NCBI GenBank assembly: GCA_964512695.1
Contig: CAZEJU010000003.1
Coordinates: 9,897-73,896, forward strand
Origin: an uncultured Gammaproteobacteria bacterium
GTDB taxonomy: Bacteria > Patescibacteriota > Microgenomatia > Levybacterales > UBA12049
Reading direction: 5' to 3'
Length of the DNA stretch: 64,000 nt
Shown: positions 14,421-29,442 of the stretch, one piece after another
Layout: every line of letters starts with the position of its first letter
Position numbering within the stretch: position 1 is the first letter of the stretch
Notes under the pieces: model-generated
Databases searched by the model: none
What the model saw: the letters and a program-made list of their open reading frames with translations, nothing else
What the model was told of the DNA's origin: nothing
Made by a program: the position numbers and the translations under genes

Positions 14421-15023
14421 TTAACGAGAATAATATTCAATAATCTGTCTTGTGTTAAATGGTAGCTCAATATCTTCTCTTTTTGGCATACGAACAAGCT
14501 TTCCTTGATTACCCTCTTTCGAAAGAAAGGAAACAACTGGCACATTTTCTTCCATAAGTTTCATAATATCGGGATTCTTCTGCATTGCATTAGAAATGCT
14601 GATTATATCATTTTCTTTTACCTGATATGATGGAATGGTCATTTTCTCTCCATTAACTGTAACATGCCCATGGGTAACCATTTGTCTAGCCATAAATCTG
14701 GATTTAGCGAATCCCAAACGATATATAACGTTATCTAAACGTGTCTCTAAAAGAGATAAAAGTAATTCTTCTGTGTCACCCTTTTGTTTAGATACACGAT
14801 CAACTAATTGTTTAAACTGTTTTTCAAGCACTCCGTAAATAGCTTTTGCTTTCTGTTTCTCTCGAAGTTGTAAACCGTACTCAGATAACCTTCTTTTTCT
14901 TTTTCTTCCATGAACACCAGGTGGGATACTAATACGACGAAGCAAACTTGCAGATGTTTTATCAAGAATATTGACTCCTTCTCTTCGTGCAATTCGATGT
15001 TTAGGACCTGTATAGTGTGCCAT
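14421..15023 (-). CDS. rpsD: 30S ribosomal protein S4
   Basis: [19 protein letters not shown]... with an S4 RNA-binding domain. Confidence 0.9.
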   Translation of the reverse strand: MAHYTGPKHRIARREGVNILDKTSASLLRRISIPPGVHGRKRKRRLSEYGLQLREKQKAKAIYGVLEKQFKQLVDRVSKQKGDTEELLLSLLETRLDNVIYRLGFAKSRFMARQMVTHGHVTVNGEKMTIPSYQVKENDIISISNAMQKNPDIMKLMEENVPVVSFLSKEGNQGKLVRMPKREDIELPFNTRQIIEYYSR

Positions 15024-16376: not shown

Positions 16377-17156
16377 TTATTTTGTCAATATTTCAGGACC
16401 ATTCTCAATTATAGCTATTGAACGCTCAAAAACCGCAGATAAACTCCCGTCAGCTGACTTTATAGTCCAATCATCCGTACCAGCATACACGACATCCGGC
16501 CTACCCATATTATAAATTACCTCAACAGCGATGGTCATTCCCTTTTCAAGTAAAGGAGTTCGTGATATAGGCTGGTCGAGAAAACCGGGCACCTCTGGCT
16601 CTTCGTGAAGCTCTTTTCCTACCCCATGACCTATTAATGTACGAACGATAGAGTAGCCACCTTCTTTTTCCACAATATCTTGTATCGCTTTAGAAATATG
16701 TCCAATACGATTCCCTAATACAGCCTGAGCAATACCTGCCTCCAAAGCCTTTTTACCAATAGCTAAAAAGAGCTGTTTTTCTTTGTAATTTTGAGTTTTG
16801 AGTTTGGAGTTTTGAGTTGAGACCAGTATGGTCTCGGCCATATCGGTATGATATCCCTGAAAATATACGCCAGCGTCTATACATACGACGTCTCTTTCTT
16901 TAAATTTATAGGGAGAAGGAACTCCATGTACAACAACATCATTCGTACAAATACACAACGTGTGATGGTATCCTGGAACTTTTTTAAACCCTGGTTCTCC
17001 ACCTTTTTCCCGGATTAACCTTTCTGCCAAAGTATCTATCTCTATTTCAGAAACTCCTGGTTTTACATTCCCAAGCACTTCCCACAATACATCTGAGAGA
17101 ATTTTTCCCCCTTGTTTCATATATTCAATTTGTTTTAAATTTTTTATATCTATCAT
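16377..17156 (-). CDS. map: type I methionine aminopeptidase
   Basis: GYHHTLCICTNDVVVHGVP, DVVCIDAGVYFQGYHTD, metal-ligand pattern. Confidence 0.9.
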   Translation of the reverse strand: MIDIKNLKQIEYMKQGGKILSDVLWEVLGNVKPGVSEIEIDTLAERLIREKGGEPGFKKVPGYHHTLCICTNDVVVHGVPSPYKFKERDVVCIDAGVYFQGYHTDMAETILVSTQNSKLKTQNYKEKQLFLAIGKKALEAGIAQAVLGNRIGHISKAIQDIVEKEGGYSIVRTLIGHGVGKELHEEPEVPGFLDQPISRTPLLEKGMTIAVEVIYNMGRPDVVYAGTDDWTIKSADGSLSAVFERSIAIIENGPEILTK

Positions 17157-17863
17157 AGTAAACCTCTCTTACGTATTTCATCTAAGATTACCTTTACTGT
17201 TTTCTCTTTAGAATAATCAGAGTTATCGATCATTATATACCCCTGACGTTCTGGATTTACTGGTAAGGGATATATTTTCCTTTCTTCATCACGACTATCT
17301 CTCTGTTTAATTTCTTCTGCTACCTCAGCTAATGAGATATTTGTCATTCCCATTGCTAACCATTGTTGTAATCGTCTTTCTGCACGAACAGACAACCGTG
17401 CAGTTAAATATAACTTAACATCTGCAGAAGGAAAAATCGCTGTTGCAGTATTTCTACCTTCTATAACAATTATAGCTCCCCTCGCTAACCGTTCATTAGA
17501 AACTGAACGGTAGATACTAATCATTTCATACTGGACTTCATTAATAGTAGCTATTTTCGAAGAAGCTGCTGATACTTCTACTGTTCTTATTTTATCGGAT
17601 ACGTCATCTTTATTTAATAAAACCCGCTTTTCTCCCAAAAAATGTATAGATATTTTTGGTAATGCTGTTATTACTGCATTTTTATCCTCAACATTTATCC
17701 CATGCTCCAAACAGTATAATGCTAAACATCTAAAAAACACTCCAGTATCAATATAAAAACCTCCCAGCTTTTCTGCAAGTAAAGGTGCAAGCGTTCCTTT
17801 ACCGGAGGCCATGGGACCATCTATAGCTATAATGAAACCTTTTCTCTCTGTCATGCCTAACAT
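17153..17863 (-). CDS. cmk: cytidylate kinase
   Basis: IIAIDGPMASGKGT P-loop and CMP-kinase architecture. Confidence 0.8.
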   Translation of the reverse strand: MLGMTERKGFIIAIDGPMASGKGTLAPLLAEKLGGFYIDTGVFFRCLALYCLEHGINVEDKNAVITALPKISIHFLGEKRVLLNKDDVSDKIRTVEVSAASSKIATINEVQYEMISIYRSVSNERLARGAIIVIEGRNTATAIFPSADVKLYLTARLSVRAERRLQQWLAMGMTNISLAEVAEEIKQRDSRDEERKIYPLPVNPERQGYIMIDNSDYSKEKTVKVILDEIRKRGLL

Positions 17864-17919: not shown

Positions 17920-18489
17920 CTATACACGAAGTTTACTCATAATTTCTTTATGGATTTTTTCGACAGGTTGTTCGCCATTCACTTCTATAAGTAAACGTTT
18001 TCTATGGTAATAATGAAGAACAGGTTCGGTAAATTTATGGAATAATTCAATTCTATGTCTGACTGCAGCAAGTGTTTCATCATCTCTTTGTTCAGTTTCA
18101 TGTTCTTCTCTGTAGGATAATCTCCATAACGCCTCCCGATCAGATACTTTTAAATAAATAACTTCATCTATCTTCTCGTCAAATGCTTCTGCTTGCTTCA
18201 ATGTTCTTGGAAAACCATCAAGAATATATCCTGAAATATATTCTGACCTTTTAAGATATTCCGAAACAATCTTTATAGTCCGGTTATCAGGTATTAATGT
18301 CCCCGCATGAAGAAGCTCTTTAATATAACGGCCTAATTTAGAGCGTTCTTTAGCTAGCTCACGAAAAATATGACCTGTAGAGAGATATGGAACATGAAGC
18401 TGTTTAGAAAGTAAATTACCCTGTGTGGATTTCCCTGAACCCTGGATACCGATAATTATTATTTTTAGTGTTTTACTTTCTGAAGTCAT
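17920..18489 (-). CDS. adk: adenylate kinase
   Basis: IIGIQGSGKSTQG...GHIFRE...GTLIPD; canonical position after secY. Confidence 0.85.
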   Translation of the reverse strand: MTSESKTLKIIIIGIQGSGKSTQGNLLSKQLHVPYLSTGHIFRELAKERSKLGRYIKELLHAGTLIPDNRTIKIVSEYLKRSEYISGYILDGFPRTLKQAEAFDEKIDEVIYLKVSDREALWRLSYREEHETEQRDDETLAAVRHRIELFHKFTEPVLHYYHRKRLLIEVNGEQPVEKIHKEIMSKLRV

Positions 18490-19822: not shown

Positions 19823-20266
19823 CTATACTTTGTTTTCTATACTGCCACCAGCTTTTATTATTTTATCAGCAGCGGATTGTGAAACAGGAACTTTTACAGT
19901 TAAAGGGTTATTTACAGTACCATGGCCCAAAAGCTTTACACCCACTTTTCGTGCATTTTCTTCTACTATTTTCATCTTTATAAGTGTATCTACGTCTACT
20001 GTACCTTTTGCTGGAATTCTTGCTAAATCATGTAGGTTCAACACATATGGCTTTAACCCCCTGGCTTTATTACGAAGCTTACCTCGTAAAAAAGGCATTC
20101 TTTTTACTAATGGAAGAGCTCCACCTTCAAATCGTAACGGGACAGAATTTCTTGCTTTCTGACCTTTTGTACCCCGGCCTCCTGTCTTTCCACGGCCTGA
20201 ACCATGACCTAAACCAAGTCTTTTCTTATTTCTCTGTACTACTGATGGCAATGTATGAAGTTCCAT
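19823..20266 (-). CDS. rplO: 50S ribosomal protein L15
   Basis: RLGLGHGSGRGKTGGRGTKGQKAR. Confidence 0.9.
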   Translation of the reverse strand: MELHTLPSVVQRNKKRLGLGHGSGRGKTGGRGTKGQKARNSVPLRFEGGALPLVKRMPFLRGKLRNKARGLKPYVLNLHDLARIPAKGTVDVDTLIKMKIVEENARKVGVKLLGHGTVNNPLTVKVPVSQSAADKIIKAGGSIENKV

Positions 20267-20784
20267 TATTTCTTTTTCTCCTTTTTATCTAATCTCATTC
20301 GTTCATACTGATGAGCAACTTGTCGAAGCGCTTCCATCGTAGCATAAACATTATTCGCCTGATTCTTTGTGCCTAATACTTTGCTTGAGATATTTTGGAT
20401 TCCCGCTGCCGCAACGACACTTCTTACTGCTCCGCCAGCGATAATACCTGATCCTGGAGGTGCTGGCTTTAACATGATCTTCGCTGCACCATGCTTTACA
20501 TCGATTCTTAATGGAATAGTACCATTAATAATTGGTACTGTTATCATATGTTTTTTCGCTAAAATAATTCCTTTTCGAATAGCTGAAGATACATCCATTG
20601 CTTTACCTAAACCAATTCCTACTTTACCATTTTTATCTCCCACTACAGCTAAAGCAGCAAATCCCATCTTATTACCGCCCTTTGTTTTTTTCGATACACG
20701 GTTAATGTTTACTACTTGTTCTGAGAAGCCATTAAGCATTTCAGCTTCTTTTTGTATATTTTTATTCGTGTTTTTATTATTCAT
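20266..20784 (-). CDS. rpsE: 30S ribosomal protein S5
   Basis: VNINRVSKKTKGGNKMGFAALAVVGDKNGKVGIGLGKA. Directly abuts rplO, so there is no rpmD. Confidence 0.9.
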   Translation of the reverse strand: MNNKNTNKNIQKEAEMLNGFSEQVVNINRVSKKTKGGNKMGFAALAVVGDKNGKVGIGLGKAMDVSSAIRKGIILAKKHMITVPIINGTIPLRIDVKHGAAKIMLKPAPPGSGIIAGGAVRSVVAAAGIQNISSKVLGTKNQANNVYATMEALRQVAHQYERMRLDKKEKKK

Positions 20785-22205: not shown

Positions 22206-22391
22206 TTACCAGCTTGATTTAATAACGCCTGGTAATTCTCCTTTCATCGCTAATTCACGAAAACACAAACGGCAAAGACCAAATCTTCGAAAGTAAGCTC
22301 TCGACCTCCCACAAATACCACAACGGTTTACATGTCTCACCGTATATTTCTGTTTTCTCTTAAATTTAACTATATCTGATGTTTTTGCCAT
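22206..22391 (-). CDS. rpsZ: 30S ribosomal protein S14 type Z (zinc-binding, 61 aa)
   Basis: [38 protein letters not shown]. Confidence 0.9.
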
Positions 22392-23070: not shown

Positions 23071-23376
23071 TTATATTTCCTTATTACACTTTCTACAAAC
23101 TCTCATTTTTTTGTTTTTTTCGAATGTATACCCTATTCGTGTAGGCTGTTTGCACTTAGGGCAGACAAGTGCAACTTGTGAAACTGGCAAAGGCTTTGTA
23201 ATTGTAACAATTTCTGATTGTTGTCCTTGTGCACGAGCTTTAACATGACGTTTGAATTGATTAACGCCAGGAATCAAGACTTTCATCTCTTTAGCAAAAA
23301 CCTTCTCTACTTTTCCAGTTTTTCCTGCGTCTTTACCGTGTAAAATTTTTATTTCATCACCTTTATGTAATTTCAT
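23071..23376 (-). CDS. rplX: 50S ribosomal protein L24 with C-terminal CxxC...CxxC (putative zinc ribbon)
   Basis: KOW region MKLHKGDEIKILHGKDAGKTGKVEKV. C-terminus is VCPKCKQPTRIGYTFEKNKKMRVCRKCNKEI. Confidence 0.85.
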   Translation of the reverse strand: MKLHKGDEIKILHGKDAGKTGKVEKVFAKEMKVLIPGVNQFKRHVKARAQGQQSEIVTITKPLPVSQVALVCPKCKQPTRIGYTFEKNKKMRVCRKCNKEI

Positions 23377-23377
23377 A

Positions 23378-23752
23378 CTAAACAACCTCCACTGCCATAC
23401 TTGCTATTTTTGTAAAGCCCCTATCACGAACTTCTCTTGGAATCGGACCGAATATACGTGTTCCTCTAGGATTTTTATCTTCTGCGTTGTCGATAATAAC
23501 TGCTGCATTATCAGAAAACCGTACATACGAACCATCTTTTCTTCTATATTCTTTTCTCGTACGCACTACCACTGCCTTAACGAGCTCACTATCTTTTACT
23601 TGACCATGAGGTGAAGCACTTTTAACAACACAATTAACAATATCTCCAATTCTACCGAACTTATGTTTCGATCCACCAAAAATATGGACTACAGAAAGTG
23701 CTTTTGCACCTGAATTATCTGCGACTGATAAGATTGATCGTAATTGTATCAT
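23378..23752 (-). CDS. rplN: 50S ribosomal protein L14
   Basis: [28 protein letters not shown]. Confidence 0.9.
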
Positions 23753-28815: not shown

Positions 28816-28875
28816 ATTTCCTATTGTTTTCTAAAACTTTTTTTGTATTTTGCATACCTTCTGCCTACAAAAAAA

Positions 28876-28894
28876 GATAGCCCATTCGGCTATC
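28876..28894 (-). terminator. hairpin followed by T7 run on the minus strand, inside the rpsJ-rplC spacer (attenuator-like)
   Basis: gatagcc-cattc-ggctatc preceded by aaaaa on the + strand, so on the minus strand the hairpin is followed by TTTTTTT. Confidence 0.5.
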
Positions 28895-29133
28895 TTCCTA
28901 GTACTGTTACTACTTATGAACCCGAATTTAGGCTGATCGCAACCTCCTCATTATAATATTGTTGGGCATTAAAGTTTTAAACATGTAAGCTTTACAATAA
29001 ATACAAATTTTCTTACTGTTATCTCTAAATTTAAGTTTTCGTAATAATTCGCATTAGAGAATAATGAAATACTCAACATCCGAATTAATACGAAATAGTT
29101 ATATGTGTGAGATTATTTGAGCAGATGTATAAC

Positions 29134-29442
29134 CTACATTTTTATTTCAACATCAACACCGGCTGGAAGCTCGAGATGTGTTAAACTATCAATTGTCTTG
29201 TCTGTTGGAGAAACTATATCTATAAGCCGCTTATGCACTCTTATCTCAAAATGATCCCGTGCATCTTTATCTATAAATGGCGATCTATTTACAGCATAAA
29301 GGCTTCTATCTGTTGGTAATGGAATTGGACCCACTATCTTTGCACCAGTTCGGATTGCTGTATCAAGAATTTGTTGACAACACGCATCGAGAACACGTGA
29401 ATCATAACTTTTTAGTCGTACTCGTATTTTTCCTTTCGGCAT
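29134..29442 (-). CDS. rpsJ: 30S ribosomal protein S10
   Basis: [44 protein letters not shown]. Confidence 0.9.

Follow-up and report, generated by a model that had tools for sequence, protein, structure and literature searches.

The uL24 protein of Thermus thermophilus is counted among the Zn2+-coordinating ribosomal proteins (r-proteins) of the bacterial ribosome (PMC10450194, Nucleic Acids Research 2023), and the legend to Figure 2 of the same study lists eight Zn-binding r-proteins with reference to the structure PDB 4Y4Y. There, the C+ isoform of uL24 is defined by the pattern (CXXC)-(CXXC), and C+ and C- isoforms were classified over 2021 bacteria (PMC10450194). The metal site of uL24 was described as invariably present in bacteria growing at temperatures of at least 80 °C, C+ uL24 was tied mainly to thermophily, and the cysteines of the protein were used as a 'molecular thermometer' (PMC10450194). 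Only cultured bacteria whose growth optimum is known were surveyed, and the Candidate Phyla Radiation (CPR)/Patescibacteria are unmentioned in the study (PMC10450194). A literature search combining L24, zinc and Patescibacteria returned nothing relevant.

The uL24 encoded in the window, i.e., in the whole 64-kb stretch of DNA analysed here, carries a C-terminal motif of four cysteines that falls under this definition (PMC10450194), and the protein is an ordinary member of the known C+ class, an isoform that is already documented. A preceding sequence-only reading of the window had stated that L24 is absent from the r-proteins known to occur in C+ and C- forms and that the protein would be a new zinc-binding r-protein variant. 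The first statement is wrong, as uL24 is classified into C+ and C- isoforms (PMC10450194), and the second does not hold either, as C+ uL24 is already present in T. thermophilus structures and has been surveyed. The overall significance is small, a documented isoform having been re-discovered, the zinc site of which is known from the bacterial ribosome structure that has been studied most. What follows from it is a correction, namely that uL24 belongs with those bacterial r-proteins that have metal-binding and metal-free forms, beyond the classic seven.

The uL24 gene and its operon context

The gene rplX is located at positions 23071..23376 on the minus strand and encodes a bacterial uL24 of 101 aa in its C+ (Cys4) isoform. 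Translation of 23071-23376 (minus strand) yields MKLHKGDEIKILHGKDAGKTGKVEKVFAKEMKVLIPGVNQFKRHVKARAQGQQSEIVTITKPLPVSQVALVCPKCKQPTRIGYTFEKNKKMRVCRKCNKEI, and the 101-residue sequence reads MKLHKGDEIK...VALVCPKCKQPTRIGYTFEKNKKMRVCRKCNKEI. The protein was assigned by its scores against the profiles TIGR01079 (rplX_bact; 104.3 bits at a cut-off of 53.7) and PF17136 (80.3 bits at a cut-off of 27), by matches to 75 distinct solved uL24 chains in the PDB with a best E-value of 2.4e-22, and by structural comparison using Foldseek. An N-terminal KOW motif was recognized in addition (24.6 versus a cut-off of 22.3). The true start of the gene is the ATG at 23376, because this codon follows the L14 stop by 1 nt, because a Shine-Dalgarno sequence GGAGG, read directly from the sequence at 23386..23390 (minus strand) within the end of rplN, lies 9 nt upstream of it, and because M1 and K2 are invariant among the homologs. 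A longer open reading frame (ORF) with a TTG start was considered and rejected as the uL24 gene.

On the minus strand, the genes of the window are arranged in the order S17-L14-L24-L5-S14-S8-L6-L18-S5-L15-SecY, and uL24 is found where the spc operon usually has it, flanked by rplN (L14) and rplE (L5). The same order is kept in 79 of 81 related loci, which comprise the best 80 loci of a scan of GTDB genomes and the contig carrying the window's own gene.

Several further features of the window were recorded. The gene for S5 (20266-20784, minus strand) is directly followed by that for L15 (19823-20266, minus strand), stop and start sharing base 20266, and no rpmD (L30) is found between the two in window positions 19823-20784. 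Absence of L30 is a trait of CPR/Patescibacteria. S14 (22206-22391, minus strand) is the short C+ form of 61 aa with the motif CGICGR...CRLC, and L36 (15867-15980, minus strand) is C+ as well (CxxC...C...H). S4 (14421-15023, minus strand) contains no cysteine at all and represents the C- form, and adenylate kinase (17920-18489, minus strand) is likewise devoid of cysteine, its lid being Zn-free. Since S14, L36, and L24 are C+ but S4 is C- and adenylate kinase is Cys-free, the organism mixes C+ and C- states. The low GC content of the window (34.8%), the missing L30 between S5 and L15, and the combination of C+ S14 and L36 with a Cys-free S4 are consistent with a CPR genome. A non-coding gap of 318 nt (28816-29133) separates rpsJ (S10, 29134-29442) from rplC (L3, 28018-28815) in an otherwise tight operon. 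The L4 ORF (27174-28088) has a 5' extension of which ~70 nt are shared with L3, which suggests that the true L4 start is located further downstream. A cytidylate-kinase-like gene (GFIIAIDGPMASGKGT..., 17153-17863, minus strand) lies between adk and map in the spc/alpha r-protein cluster, an arrangement that differs from that in model bacteria.

The C-terminal Cys4 motif and its putative metal site

The protein contains exactly four cysteines, C72, C75, C94, and C97, which form the motif CPKC-x18-CRKC within its last 30 residues. The first putative zinc knuckle, CPKC, comprises residues 72-75 (23152..23163, minus strand; cysteine codons TGC..TGC) and aligns with CPAC of T. thermophilus uL24. 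It is followed by a spacer of 18 residues, 76-93 (23098..23151, minus strand), which is predicted by AlphaFold2 as the β-hairpin of the ribbon, and by the second putative zinc knuckle, CRKC, at residues 94-97 (23086..23097, minus strand; cysteine codons TGT..TGT), which aligns with CAKC of T. thermophilus. The Cys4 zinc-ribbon-like motif at the C-terminus of L24, the central observation of the sequence-only reading, is borne out by its conservation, by the alignment with T. thermophilus and by the hairpin predicted between the knuckles, while two details have to be corrected: the spacing given as CxxC-x13-CxxC was a miscount, and the motif had been assigned to the last 35 residues.

An AlphaFold2 model, which was built on an alignment of 60 sequences and which has a mean pLDDT of 84 (73-82 in the tail, 78-82 in the hairpin strands), contains strands at residues 68-71, 81-86, and 89-94. 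CPKC is thereby placed just before the β-hairpin and CRKC at its end, and the tail, for which a structure prediction had been proposed as a check, is accordingly predicted as knuckle, β-hairpin and knuckle, as in a classical zinc ribbon. When the model was compared with the PDB using Foldseek, the top matches were all uL24 chains, with TMq values of 0.81-0.90 over the uL24 proteins of S. aureus (0.90), Listeria, M. smegmatis, and T. thermophilus (chain 4v8a_AY, 0.89). This match supports the identity of the protein as uL24 but not metal binding, because the Cys-free uL24 proteins of S. aureus and Listeria reach an equal TM-score.

We propose that the C-terminal 30 residues of uL24 form a small zinc ribbon, in which two CxxC knuckles would embrace a β-hairpin and the four thiolates would most likely chelate one structural Zn2+. 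The ion would cross-brace and rigidify the small C-terminal domain, and the site would be of structural rather than regulatory nature. The C-terminal domain of uL24 packs on domain I of the 23S rRNA near the tunnel exit. The analysis shows that the protein is uL24, that the four cysteines are present and conserved, that they are equivalent to those of T. thermophilus, and which fold is predicted; from this we infer zinc binding by the window protein as well as a role of the site in stability. The presence of zinc in T. thermophilus uL24 itself is taken from the statement in PMC10450194. Taken as a whole, it is very probable that the window encodes the single-copy, operon-encoded C+ uL24 of a Levybacteria-related CPR bacterium and that its four thiolates hold one structural Zn2+.

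The Cys4 site could hold iron or an iron-sulfur cluster instead of zinc, as reported for T. thermophilus uS4, and CPR bacteria are mostly anaerobes. The Fe4S4 cluster described for uS4 illustrates that Cys sites of r-proteins are not always occupied by zinc, but the same study assigns Zn2+ to uL24 specifically (PMC10450194), and the arrangement CxxC-hairpin-CxxC represents the canonical geometry of a mononuclear zinc ribbon, so that we consider iron to be a very unlikely occupant and structural zinc to be the preferred one.

A different function of the site would be that of a zinc-economy switch, in which a Cys-free paralog replaces C+ L24 during zinc starvation in a Zur-regulated manner. Zur-regulated pairing is known for L31, L33, L36, S14, and S18, and uL24 exists naturally in both C+ and C- forms. 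Against such a switch, tblastn detected a single L24 locus in the 64 kb and no Cys-free paralog beside it, whether queried with the L24 protein of the window itself or with those of T. thermophilus and E. coli, and no assembly with two L24 loci was found among the best 80 genome loci. Cys-free uL24 was encountered in four of the related loci (L013, L027, L044, and L065), and in each of them it is the sole ortholog and sits in the L14-L24-L5 slot of the main operon. As these Cys-free proteins occupy the same slot, they are orthologs that lost their cysteines in place and do not form a paralog pair, and such in-place loss is the pattern described as 'recurrent disruption of Zn ribbons'. With one L24 in the window and Cys-free relatives in the same operon slot, the relevance to zinc economy that had been suggested finds no support, and we regard a switch of this kind as highly improbable. 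The preferred reading is that of a single-copy protein with a structural zinc site.

The motif is strongly conserved. Alignment of relatives, which the sequence-only reading had named as a check on the four cysteines, revealed the pattern CxxC...CxxC in 119 of 120 uL24 homologs (60-100% identity), and 114 of these 119 share the spacer length of 18 residues. Three of the four cysteines (C72, C75, and C97) show no variation in the 60-sequence alignment and C94 reaches a conservation of at least 90%, and the four cysteines are under purifying selection in the relatives. Cysteine is scarce in the 34 proteins of the operon region, where it accounts for only 0.44% of the residues, and 11 of the 26 cysteines in this region reside in the three metal-type motifs of L36, S14, and L24. 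For a random protein of 101 aa with the composition of the operon region, the expected count of such a motif is ~6e-7. That the four cysteines arose by chance or artefact, through a frameshifted tail or lineage noise, and are functionless can be dismissed, because the conservation in homologs and this expectation exclude a chance origin, because the tail is colinear with that of the homologs up to the last residue and with the L24 proteins of T. thermophilus and E. coli as far as the C-terminus, which rules out the frameshifted C-terminus that the sequence-only reading had allowed for, and because nothing was found in its favour.

C+ uL24 among Patescibacteria and other relatives

Cys4 uL24 is encoded in 77 of the 81 loci, a proportion that is biased upward by the choice of the best 80 loci with a C+ query and that does not represent a frequency for bacteria overall. 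The loci with the motif belong to many CPR classes, to Chloroflexota and Dehalococcoidia, and to Clostridia; the latter include the cultured Gemmiger formicilis and metagenome-assembled genomes (MAGs) labelled Faecalibacterium and Christensenella. Among the relatives with a taxon name, Levybacteria are the closest, and other Patescibacteria are more distant. Some of the loci (L008, L010, L016, L003/L005/L006 and others) stem from records entitled 'Candidatus Sulfotelmatobacter', 'Acidiferrales', 'Eisenbacteria', or 'uncultured Gammaproteobacteria', and their L24 proteins are 57-64% identical to that of the window. Such titles have the look of placeholders or of taxonomic mis-assignments of Patescibacteria MAGs, and they do not constitute evidence of C+ uL24 in the phyla named.

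In two CPR-like uL24 proteins (L016:1501-1827 and L033:1501-1824) the hairpin contains an insertion of 7-8 residues, which results in a spacer of 25-26 residues versus 18, e.g., ...VEVSAKGRSSSGRKVRVCRKC. Variation in length is tolerated at the tip of the ribbon hairpin, as these two proteins show. The uL24 proteins of three Clostridia MAGs labelled Catabacter, Christensenella, and 'uncultured Clostridia' (L056:1501-2007, L064:1501-1998, and L070:1501-1995) comprise 165-169 aa, with a normal C4 domain that is followed by a low-complexity tail of ~65 residues rich in lysine, alanine, and threonine.

The near-universal occurrence of C+ uL24 in the Patescibacteria of the examined set, which was assembled with a bias toward C+, is the one modest addition of this analysis, CPR bacteria being outside the published survey (PMC10450194). 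In evolutionary terms, the Zn site would be an old feature of uL24, which may have been retained in Thermus, CPR bacteria, Chloroflexota, and many Clostridia, and which other lineages would have lost repeatedly as their cysteines were substituted in place. The distribution in CPR bacteria mildly favours such an ancestral retention over a thermal adaptation as the reading of the uL24 site, and the prevalence of the C+ form in this group mildly qualifies the proposal that the cysteines of uL24 report growth temperature. A more far-reaching generalization can be offered only tentatively: in these non-thermophilic groups, C+ uL24 might be near-universal (Patescibacteria) or common (Chloroflexota and gut Clostridia), and the Zn site might be an ancestral trait that deep or streamlined lineages have retained, and not a thermal marker. 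If true, the 'molecular thermometer' of uL24 cysteines would not apply to much of bacterial diversity.

Comparison with known uL24 proteins and zinc-ribbon r-proteins

The name L24 is also used for an unrelated protein. Archaeal and eukaryotic eL24 (L24e) contains a treble-clef zinc finger and shares with the window protein only the name 'L24' and zinc binding, and Ribosomal_L24e is not among the Pfam matches of the window uL24 (E ≤ 0.1). Two reports of an 'L24 zinc finger' (PMC4999995 and PMC3352095) were examined as possible prior art on uL24 and rejected, as both concern eL24/L24e.

The r-proteins L31, L33, L36, S14, S18, L28, and L32 have a recurrently disrupted Zn ribbon in common with uL24. 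For these seven, Zur-regulated pairs of C+ and C- forms were reportedly described by Makarova and colleagues in 2001. In contrast to these pairs, no L24 paralog pair is seen here, and the loss of cysteines occurs in place in a single operon copy.

The Cys-free uL24 proteins of E. coli, B. subtilis, S. aureus, and Listeria have the fold in common with the window protein (TMq up to 0.90) and likewise keep the sequence PTR[IV]G..KK.R of the C-terminal hairpin; Listeria uL24 is 42-43% identical to the window protein. The differences are found at the knuckles: Listeria and Staphylococcus have DPKT in place of CPKC and AKKS in place of CRKC, while E. coli uL24 has NAAT and FKSN at these positions, the ligand columns being occupied by N, T, F, and N. 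In a search of the 42-residue tail against the PDB, the Cys-free Staphylococcus chains rank first, and T. thermophilus is absent among the matches listed.

The uL24 of T. thermophilus, known from 70S crystal and cryo-EM structures (e.g., PDB 4Y4Y and 4V8A), the sequence of which is an exact match to the PDB sequence u287 (267 entries), resembles the window protein in family, in sequence (38% identity over the full length), in the positions of the CxxC pairs, in its operon slot, and in its fold (TMq 0.89). Its motif CPAC-x19-CAKC, with Cys76, Cys79, Cys99, and Cys102 in the numbering of the 110-residue PDB sequence, places all four cysteines in the same MAFFT columns as those of the window uL24. 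The spacer comprises 18 residues in the window protein versus 19 in Thermus, and Thermus uL24 has a 4-residue N-terminal and a 4-residue C-terminal extension, both of which are missing in the window protein. The hosts differ as well, the window originating from a low-GC CPR bacterium and Thermus being a thermophile, and whereas the published classification links the C+ form mainly to thermophily (PMC10450194), C+ is the rule in the CPR bacteria analysed here.
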